Sequence record: MZ234024.1
Strand: one strand, 5' to 3'
DNA: 39,375 bases
Origin: Escherichia phage vB_EcoP-101136BS1
Shown: piece after piece, positions 1 through 14,751 of the stretch
How the letters are laid out: every line of letters begins with the position of its first letter
Numbering within the stretch: the stretch's first letter is position 1
Program-made: the position numbers and the translations under genes
The notes under the pieces: generated by a model
Seen by the model: the letters and a program-made list of their open reading frames with translations, nothing else
Database searches by the model: none
What the model was told of the DNA's origin: nothing

Positions 1-3000
1 ATGCAGGAACGAGAGGATCGCTCTACGTGGTTCGGTTTCGGCTCGGCTACAGAAGCTGAAGTGAAGAACTCTATGGTCGGCGTGGCTATCCGCGCTGGTC
101 AGACCGAGGACTCACTGGATGTCATTGGCGATGTGTTCAACCCAACCCGATGGAATAACCATAAGTGGTCTCGTGAGGAGCTGGACCAGATTCGTAACGC
201 TGGGGTTCTGCCTCAGTATTACGGAGTCATCACTGGTGGTTCCCCTCAGAACCTGACTGAGCTGATTAACTTGGCGCTTGAGAACCAGAAGTTGGACCAA
301 GAGAAGGCCAAGGCCGGGACTGGTGCTCAACTGGCGGCTGGTGTGATTGGTGCTGGCGTGGACCCTCTGACCTACGTTCCTATTGCTGGGCAGGTAGGTA
401 AAGGTGGGAAGCTAGTCAACAAGATGTTCACTGTGGCTGCTCAGTCTGGTGCTCTGGCTGGGGCATCCGAGATTGCTCGAACCTCAGTTGCTGGTGGGGA
501 CGCTCATGTGGCTGAGGCAATTATGGGCGGTGCTCTCTTCGGTGGGGGAATGACAGCTATCGGGGACGCTATCGGCAAGGCCTTAGGCAAGTCAACCAAC
601 GAGTTCGCCGGACCAGCCACACGTCTGGAAGCCCGTGAGACTGCACGTAATGTTGATGGTCAGGACCTGTCGCGTATGCCAATCCGTGAAGGAGAGGAGA
701 CCTTTAGTCATCAAGGTGTTAAGTTCGCAGACGTTCCGAACGAGCCGGGTAGTGTACGACTGGAAGATGGTTCAATCCTGATTGGTGAGAATCCTCTGAA
801 CCCTAAGACACGTAAAGTCTTTGACGAAGTGATTGAGCCTGAACGTGCCGCTGCTGGTGTGAACCTTGGTGGGCTGACTGAGATTGGCCTGAAGCTGCTT
901 CGGTCCGAGAACCCTGAGATTCGTGGAGTAGCTGCTGACTTAGTACGTTCACCGACTGGTATGCAGTCTGGGGCCTCAGGTAAAATAGGGACAACTGCGT
1001 CAGACGTATTCGAGAGACTTCGTGCTGTGGACCATCGGTTCTACAATGACATCGACGATGCGGTTACTGAGGCACTAAAGGACCCGTACTTCCAGACAGC
1101 ATTCTGGCGAGACTCTGGCGCATTCCGTCAAGACATCTATCAGCGCGTGTCTATGGCTATCGAAGATGGTAGCGGAAACCTGAAGGCTGAATTGACTCCG
1201 GGAGAACTGAAAGTCTATGACCTGCTGAAGAACCAGTTTGACGCCAAGCGTGAGATGATGGAGAACCCGGCGATGTTTGGTCGCCCAGACGCTCAGTCTA
1301 TCTTTCCGGGTAGCCGCTTCAAGGGAACATACGTCCCGCATGTGTATAGCAACCAGATGAAGGAGCTGTACATCAAGGAGCTTGGGAGTCCAGAGGCACT
1401 ACAGGAGGCCATCAAGAAGTCATGGTTGACCAGCTATGCGTCTCGACCTGAAGTCAAGAAACGTGTGGACGAGGCACTCTTAGAGGCTGACCCTACGTTG
1501 ACTCCAGAAGGACTTGCGGCTGCGGTCGATAAGTACGCCAACGATAAGGCTTATGGTATCTCTCACACCGAGCAGTTCGAGCGTTCATCCGTAATGGAAG
1601 AGAACATCAATGGTCTGGTGGGTCTGGAGAACAACAGCTTCCTTGAGGCTCGTAACCTGTTCGATAGCGATATGTCAATCGTCCTACCTAACGGTCAGAC
1701 CTTCAGTGTCAACAACCTGCGTGAGTGGGACATGGACAAGATTGTCCCGGCCTACAACCGTCGAGTTAATGGCGATATTGCTATCATGGCTGGTACAGGC
1801 AAGACCACGAAGGACATGAAGGACTTGGTTGAGACCCTGATGAACAAGGCTGGGGATGACGGTAAGTTGAAAGGTGAAGTATCTACATTACGTGACACTT
1901 TGAAGATTCTAACTGGTCGTGCTCGACGTGATGGTGCTGATGATGCGGCCTTCGCTACCGTGATGCGCACAATGACAGACCTATCGTTCTTCGCTAAGAA
2001 TGCCTACATGGGTGTTCAGAACTTAACGGAGATTGGTGGTATGCTGGCTCGTGGTAACGTTCGTGCAATGCTTCATGGAGTCCCAATTTTCCGTGACCTA
2101 GCCTTCCGTAACAAGAAGGTTGGGGCCTCAGAGATTAAGGACCTGCACAATGTTATCTTCGGTAAGGAACTGGATGACTCAATCCGTCCGTCTAAACAGG
2201 ATGTCATTGACCGTCTGCGATCTTACAGTGACCTCGGTCGTGGTACAGCTACAGCTCTGGGGACTGCCAAGTATTACACTGGCGAACTTGCAGTACGCTC
2301 TCCGTTCACTAAAGTCCTCAACGGTACGACCAACTACCTGTTAGATGCTGGACGTCAGGGCTTCCTGTCTGACATCGTGGAGCATAGCCTGACTGGTAGT
2401 AAGCGTAAGTTCGATGACCGCTGGCTGAAGACCGCTGGTATCTCTGACGAGCAGTGGAAGGGCATTAAGTCCCTAATCCGTGAGTCAGTGACTCGTGGTC
2501 CAGACGGGAAGTACACCATCAAGGATAAGAAGGCGTTCAGTCAGGACCCAAGGGCTATGGACCTCTGGCGTATGGGTGACACCATCGCTGATGAGACCCT
2601 GCTACGTCCCCACAAGCTGAGCAACATGGACGCCAAGGCTTATGGTCCGATAGCGAAGACTGTCTTGCAGTTTAAGAACTTCGTTATCAAGTCTATCAAC
2701 GGTCGAACCATGCGTACCTTCTACAATGCCACCAAGAACAACCGAGCTATGGACGCTGCGCTGTCAACGGTTATGTCTATGGGTCTGGCTGGAATGTACT
2801 ACATGGCTCAGGCGCACATAAAGGCTTACGCTATGCAGGACGGTCGTGACCGAGAGTATCTGAAGCAAGCCCTTAACCCAACAATGATTGGCTATGCGGC
2901 GCTGTCCCGTAGCTCCCACTTAGGTGGTCCTCTTGGGGTCGCCAACATTCTGGGTGGAATCGCTGGGTATGAGGACACTAAGATGCTCCGCTCGTCAATC

Positions 3001-3303
3001 CTTCCGCGCTCACCTACCGAGAAGACGGAGAAGCCAATCGCCTTTGGTGCTGCTTCCAGTGGTCCGGTAATGAATGTGGTCGGCAACTTCCTTGAGCAGG
3101 TCCCGGCTTTCGGCTATGCTGCTAACGTTGGTGCTACGGCTTACAACTTGGCGGGATACCTCAAGGCGGATACCCGTGTCAACGAGCGAGACTACATGAC
3201 CGGGATGTATAACACGTTCCGTGAACTTGTACCGAATGACCCGATTACCCAGAAGTTGCTGCTTGGAACGTTTGAGGAGCAGGGCATCCACATCAAGGAC
3301 TAA
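1..3303 (+). CDS. gp16: internal virion protein D (gp16), C-terminal 1100 codons; the 5' part of the same gene is at 38791..39375
   Basis: ORF is open from base 1 with no start. Translation shares long conserved blocks with T7 gp16 as recalled (LEARETARN, RSPTGMQSGASGK, RRVNGDIAIM, FFAKNAYMG, NGTTNYLLDA, DPRAMDLWR, ELVPNDP). Frame is continuous with the ORF running off the window end. Confidence 0.9.
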   Translation: MQEREDRSTWFGFGSATEAEVKNSMVGVAIRAGQTEDSLDVIGDVFNPTRWNNHKWSREELDQIRNAGVLPQYYGVITGGSPQNLTELINLALENQKLDQEKAKAGTGAQLAAGVIGAGVDPLTYVPIAGQVGKGGKLVNKMFTVAAQSGALAGASEIARTSVAGGDAHVAEAIMGGALFGGGMTAIGDAIGKALGKSTNEFAGPATRLEARETARNVDGQDLSRMPIREGEETFSHQGVKFADVPNEPGSVRLEDGSILIGENPLNPKTRKVFDEVIEPERAAAGVNLGGLTEIGLKLLRSENPEIRGVAADLVRSPTGMQSGASGKIGTTASDVFERLRAVDHRFYNDIDDAVTEALKDPYFQTAFWRDSGAFRQDIYQRVSMAIEDGSGNLKAELTPGELKVYDLLKNQFDAKREMMENPAMFGRPDAQSIFPGSRFKGTYVPHVYSNQMKELYIKELGSPEALQEAIKKSWLTSYASRPEVKKRVDEALLEADPTLTPEGLAAAVDKYANDKAYGISHTEQFERSSVMEENINGLVGLENNSFLEARNLFDSDMSIVLPNGQTFSVNNLREWDMDKIVPAYNRRVNGDIAIMAGTGKTTKDMKDLVETLMNKAGDDGKLKGEVSTLRDTLKILTGRARRDGADDAAFATVMRTMTDLSFFAKNAYMGVQNLTEIGGMLARGNVRAMLHGVPIFRDLAFRNKKVGASEIKDLHNVIFGKELDDSIRPSKQDVIDRLRSYSDLGRGTATALGTAKYYTGELAVRSPFTKVLNGTTNYLLDAGRQGFLSDIVEHSLTGSKRKFDDRWLKTAGISDEQWKGIKSLIRESVTRGPDGKYTIKDKKAFSQDPRAMDLWRMGDTIADETLLRPHKLSNMDAKAYGPIAKTVLQFKNFVIKSINGRTMRTFYNATKNNRAMDAALSTVMSMGLAGMYYMAQAHIKAYAMQDGRDREYLKQALNPTMIGYAALSRSSHLGGPLGVANILGGIAGYEDTKMLRSSILPRSPTEKTEKPIAFGAASSGPVMNVVGNFLEQVPAFGYAANVGATAYNLAGYLKADTRVNERDYMTGMYNTFRELVPNDPITQKLLLGTFEEQGIHIKD

Positions 3304-6707: not shown

Positions 6708-8467
6708 GTAAAGACTTAGTGGCGCGTCAGGCGCTAATGACTGCACGTATGAAGTCAGACTTCGTGTTCTTCCTGTTCGTCCTGTGGAAAGCTCTGTCGC
6801 TCCCAGTCCCTACTCGCTGTCAGATTGACATGGCGAAGAAACTATCGGCTGGGGACAACAGGCGCTTCATCCTACAAGCGTTCCGTGGTATAGGGAAGTC
6901 CTTCATTACGTGTGCCTTCGTTGTCTGGAAGCTATGGAACAACCCAGACTTGAAGTTCATGATTGTGTCGGCCTCAAAGGAACGAGCCGATGCTAACTCC
7001 ATCTTCATCAAGCGAATCATCGACCTCATGCCTCAGCTTCAGGAACTCAAACCTAAGCAGGGTCAGCGAGATGCGGTTATCAGCTTCGACGTTGGACCGG
7101 CTAAGCCAGACCACTCACCTTCGGTTAAGTCCGTTGGTATCACTGGTCAGTTGACTGGTAGTCGTGCTGACATCCTGATTGCCGATGACGTGGAGGTTCC
7201 GAACAACTCAGCGACTCAGGCTGCACGAGACCGTCTATCAGAGCTTGTGAAAGAGTTCGACGCTATCCTGAAGCCGGGAGGTACGATCATCTATCTGGGT
7301 ACTCCTCAGAACGAGATGACACTGTATCGTGAGCTGGAAGGTCGTGGGTACACCACTACTATCTGGCCCGCTCGTTATCCACGCGACAGGAAGGACTGGC
7401 AGTCTTACGGTGACCGTCTGGCACCGATGCTTCAGGCAGAGCTTGAAGAGGACCCTGAGTCCTTCTACTGGCGTCCGACTGATGAAGTACGCTTCGATGA
7501 TACGGACCTGAAGGAGCGTGAGCTGTCCTACGGTAAAGCTGGCTTCGCTCTACAGTTCATGCTTAACCCGAACCTGAGTGATGCTGAGAAGTATCCTCTT
7601 AAGCTCCGTGACCTTATCGTAGCCGACTTGGACCCAGCGTCCAGCCCAATGGTCTACCAATGGTTGCCAAACCCTCAGAACAAGCGTGAGGACGTTCCTA
7701 ACGTGGGACTCATGGGTGACTCGTACCACACGTATCAGACTGTAGGTTCTGCCTTCAGCTCATACACCCAGAAGATTCTGGTCATTGACCCTAGTGGTCG
7801 TGGTAAGGATGAAACTGGTTATGCGGTACTGTATCAGCTCAACGGCTACATCTTCGCTATGGAAGTAGGTGGTATGCGTGGTGGCTATGAAGACTCTACT
7901 CTGGAAGCACTGGCTAAGATTGGTCGTAAGTGGAAGGTCAACGAATACGTCATTGAGGGTAACTTCGGTGATGGTATGTACCTTGAGCTATTCAAGCCTG
8001 TAGCGGCCCGTATCCATCCTGCTGCTGTAACCGAAGTGAAGAGTAAGGGTCAGAAAGAACTCCGCATCTGTGACGTTCTTGAGCCTATCATGGGGTCTCA
8101 CCGACTTATCGTCAACGCTGCTGCTATCGTCCAAGACTATCAGACAGCCTCTGACAAGGATGGTGTTCGTAACCCTATCTACTCTCTCTTCTACCAGATG
8201 ACACGTATCTCTCGTGAACGTGGAGCCTTGGCACACGATGACCGACTTGATGCGCTAGCTATAGGTGTACAGTTCTTCGTTGAGTCTATGGCTAAGGATG
8301 CCAACAAGGGAGAACGTGAAGTCACTGAGGAGTGGCTGGAGGAACAGATGGAGAACCCACGGAAAGGCTTCGAGTCCATCCACACTGAGTTCTGGGACAA
8401 TGGGGTCCGGGTAACTCACAATACGGACGACGAGCTTGGACTAGGGTCATACGTTACGTTCCACTAG
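6704..8467 (+). CDS. gp19: terminase large subunit (gp19)
   Basis: 587 aa (T7 gp19 is 586); extensive identity including [69 protein letters not shown]. Confidence 0.95.
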
Positions 8468-8507
8468 CTGAATGAATAACTATAGGTGAAAGCTGCATGA
8501 ATAAGCA

Positions 8508-8530
8508 GGTAGTAACCTATAGTTACTACC
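8508..8530 (+). other. perfect hairpin GGTAGTAAC-CTATA-GTTACTACC downstream of gp19
   Basis: 9-bp perfect inverted repeat with a 5-nt loop, read directly from the sequence; no U-tract follows. Confidence 0.5.
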
Positions 8531-8561
8531 AGTCTAACATACTGTTTTACAAGGAGTTTGG

Positions 8562-8584
8562 ACTTAACTATCACTATAGGGAAG
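8562..8584 (+). promoter_or_regulatory. phage RNAP promoter near the genome right end (phiOR position), TTAACTATCACTATAGGGAAG
   Basis: Matches the window's promoter consensus including a GGG start. Confidence 0.75.
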
Positions 8585-8764
8585 ACCCCCGGTTACTTAT
8601 AGTATTACTGTAGTGAATATACATATGCAGACTTTATGCAAGACCTTAGGAGGCAGACTCCGAGTTCTTACCTAAGGCTTGCACCGATGGAAGGAGGGTG
8701 ATATTAATCATAATCCCTCCAATACAGATAGTCACCGACCATAGATACAGGAGGTATGTAGCAT

Positions 8765-8923
8765 ATGGCAAAGACCAAAGCTGTACTTAAAGCTCTGGCG
8801 ACCAATCGAGCTACATACAGGTTTCTTGCTGCTGTTCTACTTGCTGCTGGCGTTACTGCTGGAAGTCAGTGGGTCGGGTGGGTCGAGACTCTCGTATGTA
8901 CTCTGGTCTCTCAGTGTAATTAA
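8765..8923 (+). CDS. small hypothetical protein (gene 19.5 position), 52 aa
   Basis: AGGAGG RBS 10 nt upstream of the ATG. Hydrophobic core LAAVLLAAGVTAG. Below the ORF-track size cutoff; assignment is by position only. Confidence 0.4.
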   Translation: MAKTKAVLKALATNRATYRFLAAVLLAAGVTAGSQWVGWVETLVCTLVSQCN

Positions 8924-8956
8924 CGCAATCATGGTAACGATTCATGAGCGGAAGAC

Positions 8957-8999
8957 CTAAGGTCAGTACGTGGATAAAGACTCACTATACTGACCTTAG
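8957..8999 (+). repeat. 12-bp perfect inverted repeat CTAAGGTCAGTA / TACTGACCTTAG with a 19-nt spacer
   Basis: Seen directly; the spacer contains GACTCACTATA, a T7-type promoter core without a GGG start. Confidence 0.5.
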
Positions 9000-9084
9000 C
9001 TACTGTAGTCAAGGACTTTAGGTAACACCTTAAGAGAAGCTCACTTAGGGTCATCCTACTTATTGGTCTATCCTAGTGTCGCCT

Positions 9085-9126
9085 GACCTACGGTCCTTGA
9101 CCTACAGTGGCTGTGGCCTACAGTAG
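9085..9126. repeat. short direct repeats of (G)ACCTAC(A/G)GT, 3 copies
   Basis: GACCTACGGTC, GACCTACAGTG and GCCTACAGTAG within 42 nt; analogous to the CCTAAAG-type arrays at T7 genome ends. Confidence 0.5.
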
Positions 9127-9163
9127 TGACGATGAGTTTTGGACCAAAAGTTTGAGACCACAT

Positions 9164-9346
9164 CTCACACTTCAAGAACCTCAAGTCTCCCCATAGGCCC
9201 TCTTTAAGTCCAGACCAAAGGCCCTACCCCAGTCTATCATAAGGTTAGACCGATGGTCCAGACTTCAGGTCAACGATAGGTCTAGGCTATGGCTTAGGGA
9301 AGGACGATAGGTTGGGACTATGGGTCTTCTTTGAGTCTCTATCTGT
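9164..9346. repeat. candidate terminal-repeat region with the genome left end near TCTCACA (9164)
   Basis: TCTCACA followed ~29 nt later by CCCCATAGG, and ending near CTATCTGT, mirrors landmarks of the T7 160-bp terminal repeat as recalled. Boundaries cannot be fixed from a collapsed assembly. Confidence 0.3.
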
Positions 9347-9480
9347 ATAACCATAAGTCACAACCATAGGTCACAGCCTACCTCTCACAACCATAAGTCA
9401 TAACCTACAGTCTCACTAACCTACAGTCTCAACCATAAGACACCAACACCTACAGTCATAGACCTACAGTTAATAGACAC
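9335..9480. repeat. array of short direct repeats (ACCTACAGTC x4, ACCATAAG(T/A)C x3) in the left-end non-coding region
   Basis: Repeats read directly at 9403, 9417, 9447 and 9461, and 9351, 9379 and 9431. Confidence 0.6.
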
Positions 9481-9580
9481 AGGCTATAGACTTAAGGTCT
9501 AAGACATGTTAGTCAAAGACTATATCCTCTTACACCATGGGGCCGACGATAGCTTAATCAATATTATTTCAAATTACCTA

Positions 9581-9610
9581 TTGACTATAGGTCCAGACTA
9601 TGGCCTAATA
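9581..9610 (+). promoter_or_regulatory. candidate host sigma70 early promoter (T7 A1 position)
   Basis: TTGACT at 9581-9586 as in the T7 A1 -35; the -10 is weak (CCTAAT at 17-nt spacing). Downstream ACACGACACGG...AACCGGATA aligns with sequence after T7 A1. Confidence 0.4.
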
Positions 9611-9720
9611 GCTTCCGTCAACACGACACGGCAACAACCGGATAGTGAAGACGCCGGTCCGGTCCGGTTAAGTAGTCAGCCTGTAAGACATACGAACAAC
9701 AGGCAACCGACAGAAAGTAG

Positions 9721-9750
9721 TTGACAGGCAGTAACGACTTAAAGTAATAT
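9721..9750 (+). promoter_or_regulatory. candidate host sigma70 early promoter (T7 A3-like): TTGACA, 18 nt, TAATAT
   Basis: Consensus -35 and near-consensus -10, followed by GTACCACATCGAAAC, which matches the T7 A3 transcribed region. Confidence 0.65.
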
Positions 9751-9804
9751 GTACCACATCGAAACAACGGTGATGACCAACACTGAATGGTCTACCTGAA
9801 GTCC

Positions 9805-9850
9805 TCTGACTGAAGGGAATGCTCTTTAACAATCTGGATAAACTCTTAAT
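9805..9850 (+). promoter_or_regulatory. leader segment matching the T7 R0.3 RNase III site region (GCTCTTTAACAATCTGG)
   Basis: 17-nt identity with the T7 early leader sequence as recalled. Confidence 0.45.
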
Positions 9851-9863
9851 GTGCGCCGATAGC

Positions 9864-9920
9864 GACTAACTACAGGGCCTTTGAGTCTACATCTGAAGGC
9901 CCTGACTGATAGTCACTAAC
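9864..9920 (+). repeat. repeated structured element, copy 1 (ACTAACTACAGG ... GGCCCTGACTGATAGTCACTAAC); candidate RNase III site
   Basis: Contains hairpin AGGGCC-N18-GGCCCT. The 22-nt core recurs at 10216-10237 and 10944-10965, each ~30-45 nt upstream of an early start codon. Confidence 0.5.
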
Positions 9921-9936
9921 TTAAAGGATGGACACT

Positions 9937-10182
9937 ATGAAACACTTAAGCACAATCACTAATCGCAATGAAGTATTCGTGAACACTAAAGGTTATGCGT
10001 GGATTCAGCTTAAAGAGATGACAGGAGCGCGTCACCGTGTGGTAGTGCGCAAGGTATCAAGCAAGCAGTTCAGCAACTACAGCGTCGATACTGTGCGTAT
10101 AGACAACGAGACATACCTGATAGACTCGCAGATAACCGTGAGTCCTACAGTGGGCGTCTCAGCTCCTTATTTCGCTAACTGA
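9937..10182 (+). CDS. hypothetical early protein, 81 aa (first cistron after the host promoters)
   Basis: ORF-track frame 9928..10182; the second ATG at 9937 has better RBS spacing (AAAGGA, 8 nt). No similarity recognised. Confidence 0.55.
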   Translation: MKHLSTITNRNEVFVNTKGYAWIQLKEMTGARHRVVVRKVSSKQFSNYSVDTVRIDNETYLIDSQITVSPTVGVSAPYFAN

Positions 10183-10184
10183 GA

Positions 10185-10240
10185 GTGATTAACTACAGGT
10201 CGTTAGACTGATAGCGGCCTGACTGATAGTCACTAACACA
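10185..10240 (+). repeat. repeated structured element, copy 2; candidate RNase III site
   Basis: TTAACTACAGG can pair with CCTG(ACUGA)UAGU as an 8-bp stem with a bulge; core GGCCTGACTGATAGTCACTAAC. Confidence 0.5.
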
Positions 10241-10265
10241 TAATTAACTTTGAGAGGATATAACT

Positions 10266-10772
10266 ATGGAACGTAATGCTAACGCATACTATGAGCTGCT
10301 GGCTGCAACCGTTGAGGCATTTATCGAGCGTATTCAGTACGACCACCTGACTCAAGATGACGACTACAGCGATGCGCTGCATGAGGTCGTAGACGGTCAG
10401 GTTCCTCACTATTACCACGAGATTTTTACGGTGATGGCTGCTGATGGTATAGACAACGAGTTCGAAGACTCTGGGATGATACCTGAAACCAAGGACGTAA
10501 CGCGTATCCTACAAGCTCGCATCTATGAGGCACTTTATAACGACGTGTCTAATAGCTTGGATGTAGTCTGGTTTGAGGATGAAGAGGCAGACGAAGAGGA
10601 TGAATATTGGGTAGTTGACGCTAAAACAGGCGCAATAATTGTGCAAGCTGTAGCTCTTGAGGTCGCTACTGCATGTGCCAAGGTTAACTATGCGGCAGGT
10701 CGCCACCTGAAGGTGGAAGACACCAATGATAACGTAGTGTTCGACCCTGCGGCTGAGGACTGCGAGCGATGA
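10266..10772 (+). CDS. ocr: Ocr-like anti-restriction DNA-mimic protein (gene 0.3) with a ~50-aa C-terminal extension
   Basis: [45 protein letters not shown] is near-identical to T7 Ocr as recalled. T7 Ocr is 117 aa; this ORF is 168 aa, continuing past the acidic tail. Confidence 0.85.
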
Positions 10773-10914
10773 TAACTTACGGTTTATGCCAGCACCACGT
10801 CACCAACGCCCGGCTTATGGTCAAGACCGGGCAGTTAGACCACGATTGGGCTATGCGTCTCTTGAAAGTGGTCTACAGGAGACGCAAGCGTATACACGAC
10901 AGTTTACACGCTAA

Positions 10915-10968
10915 GTGACAGACTACAGGTCATCAATGCTGGTGGCCTGACTGATAGTCATTAACAAC
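10915..10968 (+). repeat. repeated structured element, copy 3; candidate RNase III site
   Basis: AGACTACAGG ... GGCCTGACTGATAGTCATTAAC upstream of the 10982 start. Confidence 0.5.
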
Positions 10969-10981
10969 TGAGAGGGAAGAT

Positions 10982-11209
10982 ATGAACACAATCACTGGTG
11001 CCATAACCAAAGGTTTTCGAGCAATTTTCGGTGAAACGCAAGAAGTATGCACCAATCATAAATTCGTACTTTCTTGCGTAGCAGGTGACGAGTTTGACGG
11101 GTTCGATAAACTGGTGGTTTGCGACCATTGCGGACAAGAGGCTATCCAACACTCAAACGGTAAATTTGAATTAATAGACGATAGCCTTACAGAAGGAGAC
11201 GGCGAGTAA
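10982..11209 (+). CDS. hypothetical early protein, 75 aa, Cys-containing and acidic
   Basis: RBS GAGGGA; contains VCTNH and VVCDHCGQE, a possible small metal-binding fold. No homolog recognised. Confidence 0.55.
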   Translation: MNTITGAITKGFRAIFGETQEVCTNHKFVLSCVAGDEFDGFDKLVVCDHCGQEAIQHSNGKFELIDDSLTEGDGE

Positions 11210-11341
11210 CCTAAATAAACAGGAGAGAACCAAATCATAGCTTGACCATAACACTGACGTGATGGTACTGAGTGATAGACGAGAGGTCATCGACTGATAG
11301 GTGGCCTCAAAGATTACCACTTACATTGATAGGAGTTAACT

Positions 11342-11446
11342 ATGAGCACTGCAATCATCTGGACTATCTCAGGCTTCGTAGCGTGGGGAATGTTTACTCT
11401 AGTCTGCAAACTACCGGTCCTTACTCAACTGTTATGGGGCTTATGA
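11342..11446 (+). CDS. possible small hydrophobic peptide, 34 aa
   Basis: AGGAG RBS 6 nt upstream; MSTAIIWTISGFVAWGMFTLVCKLPVLTQLLWGL; stop overlaps the next ATG (ATGA). Too short to score. Confidence 0.3.
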   Translation: MSTAIIWTISGFVAWGMFTLVCKLPVLTQLLWGL

Positions 11447-11646
11447 CTATGAGTATCGCACTATTGATAGCCATAGGCTATGGACTTATCGCCTACGTGC
11501 TGGTGAGAGACATCAACAAAGCGCGTAAAGTCTACAAATTCAACTATGTACGTCTGGGTAGCTGGACTGTACGTCAACCTAACGGACGATTCATGCGTAA
11601 CTTAGCGAACGTCTGGGATATAGCAACACTTGGGAGCAAACTGTAA
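11443..11646 (+). CDS. hypothetical early membrane protein, 67 aa
   Basis: In-frame part of ORF 11272..11646. The 11272 start lies inside a repeated structured element, so the ATG at 11443 is preferred. One predicted transmembrane segment. Confidence 0.45.
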   Translation: MTMSIALLIAIGYGLIAYVLVRDINKARKVYKFNYVRLGSWTVRQPNGRFMRNLANVWDIATLGSKL

Positions 11647-11972
11647 TGAACAAGTCATACGGGATTAATCTGGTACACTCTATGGACGCAGACATGCAAA
11701 TGTTAAGCCTACTGGCTACCGGGTATCGTCACGGAACGTCAAGTCACTCCGCACGTCAACAGCAGGAGCGGGACCGGGTACTGCAAGCAAGACTCCGGGC
11801 TGAGGGCCATAAGTCCGAACTAATGTGTCTGGCGTATGGTGGACGACCAATCACTGACGATGGTAAACTTTTAGTCTCAGGCTGGAAGGCGATAGACCAA
11901 CGGTCAACCATCAAGCACACGACTCATGGTGACTTCAGTCATCTCCACGCTAACCCGCTGATATGCAAGTAA
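11646..11972 (+). CDS. hypothetical early protein, 108 aa, in the slot where T7 carries gene 0.7
   Basis: ORF with ATG overlapping the upstream stop. No kinase motifs and too short for a gp0.7 kinase. Confidence 0.5.
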   Translation: MNKSYGINLVHSMDADMQMLSLLATGYRHGTSSHSARQQQERDRVLQARLRAEGHKSELMCLAYGGRPITDDGKLLVSGWKAIDQRSTIKHTTHGDFSHLHANPLICK

Positions 11973-11978
11973 TTCTGA

Positions 11979-12001
11979 CTTAACTATCACTATAGGACTC
12001 A
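11979..12001 (+). promoter_or_regulatory. phage RNAP promoter immediately upstream of the RNAP gene (TTAACTATCACTATAGGACTC)
   Basis: Matches the window consensus with a GGA start, ~75 nt upstream of the gene 1 ATG. Confidence 0.7.
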
Positions 12002-12069
12002 AGGTCTAAGACTCCAAGTGAAAGACCAAAGAGACTTTAAGTGAAAGACTAATAACAAGGACTTTAAGT

Positions 12070-14751
12070 ATGAGCGTCATCTCTATTGACAAGCACGACT
12101 TCTCTGATGTGTCGAACGCCATTGAGCCGTTTAACCTACTGGCTGACCACTACGGGCAAGACCTTGCAGTCAAACAGCTTCAGCTTGAGCACGAGGCATA
12201 CACTGAAGGCGAGCGACGTTTCATCAAGAACCTTGAGAGACAGACTGAGCGAGGGGAACTGGCAGACAATCAGGTCGCCAAGCCTTTGATGCAGACTCTA
12301 GTCCCTAAGATTGCGCAAGCCGTCAAGGAGTGGCATGAAGGTCCAGACGGGAAGCTGTCAACCTCTCGTCCGAGCGTAGCGTTCACCATGTTGAGCACTG
12401 AAGAGAAGGCCGTAAAGGTCCGCTCTTTGCGCATCTCCTGCGAGTCTGCTGCGGTTATCATACTGAAGGTCATACTCTCCAAGCTGGTCAAGCCTGAAGG
12501 GATACCGATTACACCGATGGCCTCAGCGATAGGTCGCACACTTGAGGACGAAATCCGCTTCGGTCGCATCCGTGACAAGGAGAAAGAGCACTTCAAGAAG
12601 GCGATAGCTGATAACCTGAATAAGCGGGCCGGGGCGTCCTACAAGAAAGCCTACATGCAAGCGGTCGAGGCATCCATGCTGGAGCAAGGCCAACTGGAAG
12701 ATGCGTGGGGGACTTGGAGTCCGACCGAGGCTGTCCACGTTGGAATCAAGATGCTGGAGATTGTCATCCAGTCCACACAACTGGTCGAGCTTAAGCGTTA
12801 CGGTGCTGGCAATGCAGCGGCTGACGTTGAGATGGTCCACCTGTCAGACTTCTGGGTCAAGAAGATGGCACAACGAGGATTCAGCCTTGCGGGTATAGCT
12901 CCAGTCTACCAGCCTTGCGTCGTTCCACCTAAGCCGTGGACTGGTGTCGTAGGCGGTGGGTACTGGGCCAAAGGACGCAGACCATTACCACTGATTCGCT
13001 TAGGGTCTAAGTCTGCGGTAGCACGCTACGAAGACGTGTATATGCCTGAAGTCTATGACGCTGTGAACATCATTCAGAATACACCTTGGAAAGTGAACAA
13101 GAAGGTTCTGGAAGTGGTGAACATGGTCGAGAAGCTGAACAACACGCCTATTGATGACATCCCTCAGATGGAACCGCTGAAGCCTGAGGACTATGCGGGT
13201 GAGACTGAAGAAGAACTCAAGGCATGGAAGAAGGCTGCTGCTGGTATCTATCGCCGCGAGAAGGCCAGACAGTCACGAAGATTGTCACTGAGCTTTATCG
13301 TCAACCAAGCGAACAAGTTCTCTCAGTTCAAGGCCATCTGGTTCCCGTATAACATGGACTGGCGCGGTCGCGTCTACGCTGTGCCGATGTTCAACCCTCA
13401 GGGTAACGACATGCAAAAGGGTCTTCTGACTCTGGCAGTCGGTAAGCCTATTGGTGCTGATGGTTTCAAATGGCTGAAGGTCCACGGTGCAAACTGCGCG
13501 GGTGTCGATAAAGTCACCTTCGAGGAGCGTATCAAGTGGGTGGAAGATAACCACGACAACATCATGGCTGCTGCCAAGGCACCGATGGATAGCATTGAGT
13601 GGTGGGGCAAGTTAGACTCTCCGTTCTGCTTCCTAGCGTTCTGCTTCGAGTATGCTGGCGCAATGCACCACGGCTTGTCTTACTCCTGCTCGCTGCCGAT
13701 AGCGTTCGATGGGTCCTGCTCTGGGATTCAGCACTTCAGCGCTATGCTTCGCGACCACATCGGTGGACATGCAGTAAACCTGACGCCATCCGGTAAGGTC
13801 CAAGACATCTACCGCATCGTGTCTGACCGCATTGAGGAGGAGCTTAAAGTCCTACTGGTTAACGGTACGGACAACGAGATGGTAACTCACGAGGACAAGA
13901 AAACTGGTGAGATTACCGAGCGTCTCAAGCTGGGGACACGAGAGCTTGCCCGTCAGTGGCTGACCTACGGTATGTCACGAAAGGTCACTAAGCGTTCGGT
14001 CATGACTCTGGCCTACGGGTCGAAAGAGTACGGCTTCGCAGACCAAGTTTACGAGGACATCGTGATGCCAGCGATTGACTCAGGGTCTGGCGCTATGTTC
14101 ACTGAACCAAGCCAAGCATCTCGCTTCATGGCTAAGATGATTTGGGAAGCTGTGAGTGTGACCGTAGTTGCTGCGGTTGACGCGATGAAATGGCTTCAGG
14201 GTGCTGCCAAGCTGCTTGCTGCTGAAGTGAAGGACAAGAAGACTGGAGAAATCCTGAAGCCTTGTCTTCCGGTACACTGGGTCACACCTGATGGTTTCCC
14301 TGTCTGGCAGGAATACCGCAAGAAGGACACCACTCGTCTGAACCTGATGTTCTTAGGGTCATTCAACCTTCAGCCTACCGTCAACAAAGGCACGAAGAAA
14401 GAGCTGGACAAGCACAAGCAGGAGTCAGGCATTAGCCCGAACTTCGTCCACTCACAAGATGGTAGCCACCTGCGGAAGACTGTAGTCCACACTCACCGCA
14501 AGTATGGCGTGATGTCATTCGCAGTGATTCACGATAGCTTCGGGACCATCCCTGCTGACGCTGAGTATCTGTTCCGTGGTGTCCGTGAGACGATGGTCGA
14601 GACATACCGCGATAACGATGTGCTGCTTGACTTCTACGAGCAGTTTGAATACCAGCTTCATGAAAGCCAGCGCGACAAGTTGCCTGAGCTTCCGAAGAAA
14701 GGTAAACTGAATATCGAAGACATCTTGTCTTCAGACTTTGCATTCGCTTAA
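12070..14751 (+). CDS. gp1: single-subunit DNA-directed RNA polymerase (gene 1)
   Basis: 893 aa (T7 RNAP is 883); conserved C-terminus ...HDSFGTIPADA...DFAFA and specificity-loop region TRLNLMFLGSFNLQPT (T7: TRLNLMFLGQFRLQPT). Confidence 0.97.
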   Translation: MSVISIDKHDFSDVSNAIEPFNLLADHYGQDLAVKQLQLEHEAYTEGERRFIKNLERQTERGELADNQVAKPLMQTLVPKIAQAVKEWHEGPDGKLSTSRPSVAFTMLSTEEKAVKVRSLRISCESAAVIILKVILSKLVKPEGIPITPMASAIGRTLEDEIRFGRIRDKEKEHFKKAIADNLNKRAGASYKKAYMQAVEASMLEQGQLEDAWGTWSPTEAVHVGIKMLEIVIQSTQLVELKRYGAGNAAADVEMVHLSDFWVKKMAQRGFSLAGIAPVYQPCVVPPKPWTGVVGGGYWAKGRRPLPLIRLGSKSAVARYEDVYMPEVYDAVNIIQNTPWKVNKKVLEVVNMVEKLNNTPIDDIPQMEPLKPEDYAGETEEELKAWKKAAAGIYRREKARQSRRLSLSFIVNQANKFSQFKAIWFPYNMDWRGRVYAVPMFNPQGNDMQKGLLTLAVGKPIGADGFKWLKVHGANCAGVDKVTFEERIKWVEDNHDNIMAAAKAPMDSIEWWGKLDSPFCFLAFCFEYAGAMHHGLSYSCSLPIAFDGSCSGIQHFSAMLRDHIGGHAVNLTPSGKVQDIYRIVSDRIEEELKVLLVNGTDNEMVTHEDKKTGEITERLKLGTRELARQWLTYGMSRKVTKRSVMTLAYGSKEYGFADQVYEDIVMPAIDSGSGAMFTEPSQASRFMAKMIWEAVSVTVVAAVDAMKWLQGAAKLLAAEVKDKKTGEILKPCLPVHWVTPDGFPVWQEYRKKDTTRLNLMFLGSFNLQPTVNKGTKKELDKHKQESGISPNFVHSQDGSHLRKTVVHTHRKYGVMSFAVIHDSFGTIPADAEYLFRGVRETMVETYRDNDVLLDFYEQFEYQLHESQRDKLPELPKKGKLNIEDILSSDFAFA

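Follow-up and report, generated by a model that had tools for sequence, protein, structure and literature searches.

Gene content and expression signals of the early region of Escherichia phage vB_EcoP-101136BS1, a likely class I operon of the LM33_P1/K1F type

We analyzed the interval from 9937 to 11972 in the genome of Escherichia phage vB_EcoP-101136BS1 (sequence record MZ234024.1). The window, that is, the whole stretch of 39,375 bp, comprises the genome of a Kayfunavirus (T7 group) in circularly permuted form. The interval corresponds to its class I (early) region, which lies between the left end and gene 1, the RNA polymerase gene. It contains seven cistrons with Shine-Dalgarno sites or coupled starts, which we call, in order, A, Ocr, B, C, M, D, and E (Table 1), and no open reading frame (ORF) in it is longer than 168 aa. 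The start and stop codons overlap between ocr and B (ATGA, at 10769-10772) and between D and E (TAATG), and the stop codon of M overlaps the start codon of D. All of the cistrons except M fall in PHROG families.

A preliminary description of this DNA had listed four ORFs (A, C, D, and E), counted as "four or five", in which it recognized no homolog. All four are present at the expected places on the + strand, but the count was too low: Ocr, the 49-aa ORF B, and the 34-aa hydrophobic ORF M had been left out. The remark about homologs was correct in one respect, in that no similarity to a characterized protein or solved structure could be detected for A, C, or E, and incorrect in another, in that all four belong to PHROG families with members in 56 to 221 deposited phage genomes and D resembles gp0.6 of K1F and T3. 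Clear homology to a characterized protein was found only for an ORF that had not been listed, the gp0.4-like B.

The four ORFs are real genes under purifying selection. Ratios of nonsynonymous to synonymous changes (pN/pS), pooled from comparisons of the window with 2-26 relatives, were 0.30 for A, 0.07 for C (n=2), 0.33 for D, and 0.30 for E, and it is on these values (0.07-0.33) that we base this conclusion. The ratio was 0.30 for Ocr and 0.45 for B; the N-terminus of the RNA polymerase, used as a reference, gave 0.08.

Table 1. Genes and predicted signals in and around the early region (positions are those of the window).
Feature	Position	Strand	Properties and evidence
Predicted host sigma-70-type early promoter	9721..9750	+	TTGACA, 18 nt spacer, TAATAT; consensus scan, 10/12 matches
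Predicted RNase III-type hairpin before ORF A	9858..9922	+	Fold -25.6 kcal/mol, z -4.4
ORF A, 81 aa	9937..10182	+	pI 9.7; 'gp0.2' family phrog_10124; all-beta model; accessory
Predicted RNase III-type hairpin before ocr, counterpart of R0.3	10181..10240	+	Fold z -4.6, alignment, repeat copy
Ocr (gp0.3), DNA-mimic anti-restriction protein, 168 aa	10266..10772	+	PF08684, phrog_2568
ORF B, 49 aa	10769..10918	+	Basic (pI 10.6); remote T7 gp0.4 homolog; start overlaps ocr stop
Predicted RNase III-type hairpin before ORF C	10915..10968	+	Fold z -2.1, alignment, repeat copy
ORF C, 75 aa	10982..11209	+	Acidic (pI 4.5); phrog_32657; rare accessory cassette
Vestigial intergenic stretch and Shine-Dalgarno AGGAGAGAA	11210..11236	+	Homologous to the site of the next XY1 gene
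Weaker hairpin before M-D-E	11283..11308	+	9-bp GC-rich stem, fold z -1.9; no alignment to known sites
ORF M, 34-aa hydrophobic peptide	11342..11446	+	Positional analog of T7 gp0.5/K1F gp03; GGAG site 7 nt upstream
ORF D, 67 aa	11443..11646	+	Single N-terminal transmembrane helix and basic tail; phrog_2385
ORF E, 108 aa	11646..11972	+	Basic (pI 9.3); eight His, His-rich C-terminus; phrog_7066, 'gp0.42' of CR44b; start overlaps D stop
Predicted phage RNA polymerase promoter core ACTATCACTATAGG	11983..11996	+	Exact match; directly upstream of gene 1
Gene 1, T7-type single-subunit RNA polymerase, 893 aa	12070..14751	+	Annotated RNA polymerase in all relatives; downstream boundary

The early region is nearly identical to that of Escherichia phage LM33_P1. 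Positions 9400-12100 were 99.2% identical to LM33_P1 at the nucleotide level over their full length (megablast), with an identical gene order and no substantive difference, and a total of 242 deposited phage records matched this region by megablast. The order of the shared genes is common to LM33_P1, 22664BS1, Pipis, K1F, CR44b, and YZ1. K1F has A (without an annotation), Ocr, the gp0.4-like ORF, gp0.6, and E, and like the window it lacks the kinase; it differs from the window in having neither C nor M, and carries a different membrane ORF of 55 aa (gp03) instead. With the early region of T7 (genes 0.3, 0.4, 0.5, 0.6, 0.7, and 1) the window shares host promoters, an mRNA punctuated by RNase III sites, Ocr followed by an overlapping gp0.4-type gene of ~50 aa, small membrane peptides, and gene 1. 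It differs from T7 in lacking the gp0.7 kinase/shut-off protein and a T7-type gp0.6, and in having A as an added first cistron, the putative zinc-motif cassette C, a T3-type gp0.6, and E.

Three of the hairpins in the region are homologous to T7-group RNase III processing sites. The hairpins before A, ocr, and C aligned column by column with the annotated T3 sites R0.3, R0.5, and R1 and, in T7, with the corresponding sequence ahead of gene 0.3, and each is located just upstream of the ribosome-binding site of the gene that follows. They have in common the 3' arm CTGACTGATAGTCAYTAAC, which is present in three exact copies, only in the early region (chance expectation, 0.02). The 3' arm of the hairpin before A reads CTGACTGATAGTCACTAAC and is one of three exact copies, again in the early region only. 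We predict that these three sites are cleaved, and the weaker hairpin before M-D-E is a possible fourth. No family was matched in an Rfam scan of 8400-12200.

The phage promoter at 11983 (within 11975-11997) marks the end of the host-transcribed block. Its core sequence, ACTATCACTATAGG, occurs in the window in eight exact copies, with three more copies on the + strand that have 1-2 mismatches, and a predicted promoter is annotated at the same place before gene 1 in CR44b. This arrangement is different from that in T7, in which no phage promoter is annotated directly before gene 1 (phiOL, then phi1.1A after gene 1). With a promoter of this type upstream of gene 1, the polymerase could transcribe the gene that encodes it.

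Ocr was identified by a strong match to its Pfam family. The score with PF08684 was 100.7 bits (Pfam gathering cut-off, 25; E 7e-29), the protein is acidic (pI 4.1), and it is 80% identical to K1F gp0.3 and 48% identical to T7 Ocr. Its likely role is to block type I restriction and BREX. The protein has 168-169 aa here and in K1F versus 117 aa in T7, and the extra ~50 C-terminal residues (~115-168, window positions 10608-10772) are non-acidic and lie outside the Pfam Ocr domain (residues 8-94). A chimeric protein of 129 aa from an E. coli assembly (P0167) has the N-terminus of Ocr in frame with the last ~24 residues of ORF C, corresponding to window positions 10266-~10570 joined to ~11135-11209. 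The fusion points to a deletion, in some relative, of the C-terminus of Ocr, the gp0.4-like gene, and most of C. In addition, an exact 14-nt direct repeat (GTATAGACAACGAG) is present at 10097-10110 in ORF A and at 10447-10460 in ocr, 350 nt apart, and may be due to chance.

ORF B is related to T7 gp0.4 at the level of sequence profiles. The PHROG searches gave reciprocal cross-hits: B matched phrog_7202, the family of T7 gp0.4 (7.6e-4), and T7 gp0.4 matched phrog_5058, the family of B (9e-5). Comparison of the two families with hhalign gave a probability of 93% and an E of 3.5e-7 over 40 of ~50 columns. B also has the length (~50 aa) and position of gp0.4 and the overlap with the stop codon of gene 0.3; in T7, the end of gene 0.3 is the start of gene 0.4, at 1278. 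B is K1F gp02 (80% identical), and the annotators of CR44b named its homolog '0.4'.

B most likely inhibits FtsZ in the way that T7 gp0.4 does. T7 gp0.4 is described as an FtsZ inhibitor (Kiro et al. 2013, as cited in PMC9372555). Infection by K1F mislocalizes FtsZ, and the effect was ascribed to an unknown K1F protein because BLAST found no similarity to gp0.4 in K1F (Dhanoa et al. 2022, PMC9372555). Because it is a gp0.4 homolog, the 49-aa gene after ocr is the obvious candidate for that protein.

ORF D, judged by its family matches, belongs to the gp0.6 family of T3 and K1F. Its identity is 94% with gp0.6 of K1F and 36.5% with gp0.6 of T3 (E 2e-8), and both D and T3 gp0.6 match phrog_2385 (2.7e-32 and 9e-30, respectively), a family that is uncharacterized. 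D and T3 gp0.6 are similar in length (65-67 aa), in having an N-terminal transmembrane helix, and in being upstream of gene 1; they differ in what comes next, which is gp0.65 and the kinase in T3 and E in the window. D is unrelated to the MreB inhibitor gp0.6A of T7, which is in a different PHROG. A membrane location had been proposed for this ORF, and its hydrophobic N-terminal segment (Kyte-Doolittle value of 2.35 over residues 3-21) bears this out. The coding status of M, the hydrophobic peptide before D, is uncertain. M has a Kyte-Doolittle value of 1.82, is present in LM33_P1, YZ1, and CR44b, and had no PHROG match; its pN/pS was 0.47 (n=4), with too few substitutions to judge.

The absence of the gp0.7 kinase is a trait of the lineage and is not special to this phage. 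As the preliminary description had stated, there is no gp0.7 kinase ORF in the region: searches of the whole window with T7 and T3 gp0.7 (phrog_2828; tblastn) gave only noise, with a best E of 0.32, and detected no kinase anywhere. The search was sensitive enough, since the same query, at E <= 1e-3, found kinases with 30-32% identity in six SFPH2-type relatives. K1F, LM33_P1, CR44b, and YZ1 all lack gp0.7. In T7, gp0.7 is non-essential. The window keeps homologs of gp2, gp5.7, and gp1.2, which cover inhibition of the host RNA polymerase and dGTPase and so are consistent with gp0.7 being dispensable. Loss of the kinase is tolerated.

Comparison of 27 related early regions indicated that the kinase is one of several interchangeable accessory modules in the genus, with A and C optional and D-E nearly constant. 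Six of the 27 (the SFPH2 type) have neither Ocr nor B, and in all six the D-E pair is again found just before gene 1. Shigella phage SFPH2 is the annotated member; for the other five, the kinase match is what was shown. In place of A, Ocr, the gp0.4-like gene, and C, SFPH2 (322-3027) encodes an S-adenosylmethionine (SAM) lyase (PF23780), a DUF7300 protein, a helix-turn-helix protein, and a 244-aa kinase-domain protein whose match to the gp0.7 profile is confined to the kinase part (positions 45-225 of 366). In YZ1-type phages, a 174-aa gene (phrog_11084) occupies the Ocr slot. D is present in 25 of the 27 relatives, and nearly all of the relatives sampled have E.

ORF A is found in the early regions of three unrelated groups of virulent phages (T7-like, KP32-like, and N4-like). 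Its start was placed at 9937, as an alternative ATG at 9928 is too near the AGGA, and the name 'gp0.2' comes from a note on the homologous gene in phage EC1-UPM. A was found in 118 phage records. These include some Kayfunavirus, among them K1F; Klebsiella Przondovirus, with A as the first early gene in a member that does carry the kinase; N4-like Gamaleyavirus, in which it is located amid the RNAP1/RNAP2 genes at the left end; and the ~150-kb Phapecoctavirus phiWec179, in which it is within a run of small hypothetical genes. HMMER, run over 1.8 billion cluster representatives, retrieved only 17, almost all of 65-90 aa; the exceptions were two very long proteins with short partial matches only. 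An AlphaFold2 model built with 31 sequences was confidently all-beta (predicted local distance difference test [pLDDT] of 88; predicted template modeling score [pTM] of 0.74). Neither the model nor the sequence matched anything in the PDB, and the model matched only uncharacterized phage proteins in BFVD. The signature RK-x-x-S-x-x-FSN...YL(I/V)D is conserved.

ORF C is rarer and appears to be a transferred cassette. It was present in six clusters among 5.8 billion proteins and in 56 phage records, which are a subset of Kayfunavirus and the unrelated ~42-45 kb Kagunavirus siphoviruses (XY1, Golestan, K1ind1, and Bas70/75; 74-93% amino acid identity). All are coliphages, some of them isolated on K1 or extraintestinal pathogenic E. 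coli (ExPEC) hosts. In XY1, the C homolog heads an operon divergent from a DicA-like repressor. Nucleotide homology to XY1 extends from the ribosome-binding site of C to ~25 nt past its stop codon and takes in the Shine-Dalgarno site AGGAGAGAA that serves the following gene in XY1; the ATG of that gene is ATC in the window, so that its start codon is lost. Based on the limits of the homology and this orphan Shine-Dalgarno scar, we conclude that the cassette probably moved from a siphovirus-like context into the podovirus. The cysteine and histidine cluster (of the CxxH/CxxC type) noticed earlier in this ORF is real: C23xxH26, C32, and C47xxC50 are conserved, and C23xxH26 and C47xxC50 are kept in all six true homologs. 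These putative metal-binding knuckles make C a candidate zinc-ribbon or treble-clef protein; C gave no Pfam or PDB match. A match of the C profile to Ocr was an artefact of the chimeric protein P0167 in the alignment.

ORF E was found in 221 phage records, all of ~40 kb T7-like phages. The family comprises 143 clusters, all at least 60% identical, and has a conserved core (residues ~25-108) and a variable N-terminus. Some members are 127-139 aa long and have an insertion of ~31 aa, LRTFTDKNGVEWEYVGTDSRGRNYWEKTG, between the variable N-terminus and the core (P0034, P0041, P0044, and P0109); others begin at the core (83-86 aa). Together, D and E form a nearly constant pair beside gene 1 that probably serves a general host-takeover role.

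Based on these results, we think it likely that the interval is an ordinary class I early operon of a LM33_P1/K1F-type Kayfunavirus, in which Ocr, B, and D can be assigned by homology. Going by the biology of T7, the host RNA polymerase would transcribe the block from promoters around 9580-9750 during DNA entry, RNase III would cut the transcript into A, Ocr-B, C, and M-D-E, and the early products would do their work ahead of the switch to the phage polymerase at the 11983 promoter. A and C would be dispensable cassettes that move between unrelated virulent coliphages, and most likely they bind and neutralize a strain-specific host factor such as a defense system. We read them as mobile genes of the counter-defense type because their distribution matches the pattern of patchy accessory regions that has been associated with counter-defense (bioRxiv 10.1101/2023.04.06.535777). 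The preliminary description had also favored host-takeover or anti-defense factors. The setting fits this proposal (an early block running from a sigma-70 promoter to gene 1, with RNase III sites and Ocr as a neighbor), as does the finding that A and C are accessory genes with a patchy distribution that have been exchanged horizontally; for A, C, and E themselves, an anti-defense role is still an inference.

Several observations weigh against this interpretation. The number of sigma-70-like hits in the region was not above that in shuffled sequences, and for this reason the promoter at 9721-9750 was assigned by position and by analogy with the A promoters of T7 and T3. The link of B to gp0.4 is remote: the two are only about 34% identical over 41 residues, B is strongly basic, the hhalign profiles came from shallow alignments (effective number of sequences, about 1.6), and BLAST had shown no gp0.4 similarity in K1F (PMC9372555). 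A, C, and E matched no characterized family, defense-related profile, or solved structure, so their roles were inferred from context only, and the AlphaFold2 model of E was unusable (pLDDT of 52). Sequence and profile searches with A, C, M, D, and E against Pfam, NCBIfam, PADLOC, and the PDB gave nothing meaningful, and a literature search with the protein accession numbers found no papers. The motif peptides of A, B, C, and E were absent from the supplements of bioRxiv 10.1101/2023.04.06.535777. Two Ocr-linked candidates from that work, orf24 (which starts MFKHEIY) and orf7/aop1 (MVLPDNE), were also considered, and neither matches an ORF here.

A and C could instead be modulators of host physiology, like T7 gp0.4 and gp0.6, or factors in competition between phages, for example in superinfection exclusion. 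Apart from Ocr, the characterized small early proteins of T7 target FtsZ and MreB and not defense systems (PMC9372555), and A and C resemble no known anti-defense protein. Moreover, A is beside Ocr in some phages and beside the kinase in others, and so it is not tied to one defense context. Against this, the cassette-like patchiness of A and C across unrelated virulent phages that share hosts is the pattern of counter-defense accessory genes (bioRxiv 10.1101/2023.04.06.535777), and the homologs of C are confined to coliphages, some from K1 or ExPEC hosts. We regard a physiological or competitive role as possible and do not favor it over the reading of A and C as counter-defense-type genes.

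A bolder version of the counter-defense reading is unlikely in our view. It would make A a broadly mobile counter-defense or host-takeover protein with a new fold, and the D-E pair a Kayfunavirus-specific shut-off module that replaces the C-terminal domain of gp0.7.

The gp0.7 of T7 and T3 has a C-terminal domain that shuts off host transcription independently of the kinase, and it is improbable that in Kayfunavirus this domain is replaced by E, alone or with D. The idea comes from position: E directly precedes gene 1, a place taken by gp0.7 in T7 and T3, and it occurs in 221 records compared to the 242 that matched the early region. The 244-aa, kinase-only protein of the SFPH2 type is still followed by D-E, and T7 and T3, with a long gp0.7, have no E. 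However, the argument is purely positional. E as a relative or remnant of gp0.7 was rejected, as hhalign against an alignment of 77 gp0.7 sequences gave 0.4% for the full length and 0.7% for the C-terminal part (~230-359), all below 1%, and a relationship to T3 gp0.65 was rejected as well (hhalign, 0.6%; no blastp match). There is no usable structural model of E, and gp2 and gp5.7 already supply inhibition of the host RNA polymerase.

Finally, that some of the small ORFs are not genes and owe their conservation to constraint on DNA or RNA signals (promoters and processing sites) is very improbable: the 'gp0.1' ORF at 9506-9724 overlaps the promoter region, M matched no PHROG and had too few substitutions for a judgment, and the most conserved part of E adjoins the promoter at 11983, but the pN/pS values of the four originally listed ORFs are about the level of Ocr or lower, their reading frames are intact across 56-221 genomes, each listed ORF has a Shine-Dalgarno site or a coupled start, and A gave a confident fold from co-variation in 31 sequences. 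The 'gp0.1' ORF itself (phrog_30192), which runs at its end into the -35 box at 9721, probably does not function as a gene: its pN/pS was 0.68, and in CR44b it is a pseudogene with an internal stop codon.

The sequence to the left of the early region is as follows. The gene for the large subunit of terminase ends at 8467, and position 1 of LM33_P1 corresponds to approximately 9147 of the window. Between 8467 and 9200 there are a gp19.5-like ORF (8765-8923) and a phiOL-type phage promoter (8567), and T7-like left-end sequence (TCTCACA...CCCCATAGG) begins near 9163.

Phage-therapy and engineering work on ExPEC and K1 E. coli makes use of phages of the LM33_P1 and K1F types, and for this reason the functions of the genes that these phages express first bear on host range. 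The locus is an ordinary gene set that had already been sequenced, and its value is in the leads that it offers, namely B as the FtsZ inhibitor of K1F and A and C as early effectors that move between phages. These two compact genes lend themselves well to anti-defense screens. Within the genus, the slot before gene 1 alternates between Ocr with gp0.4 and the SAM lyase with the kinase, which would provide a natural comparison of the protection that each module gives.

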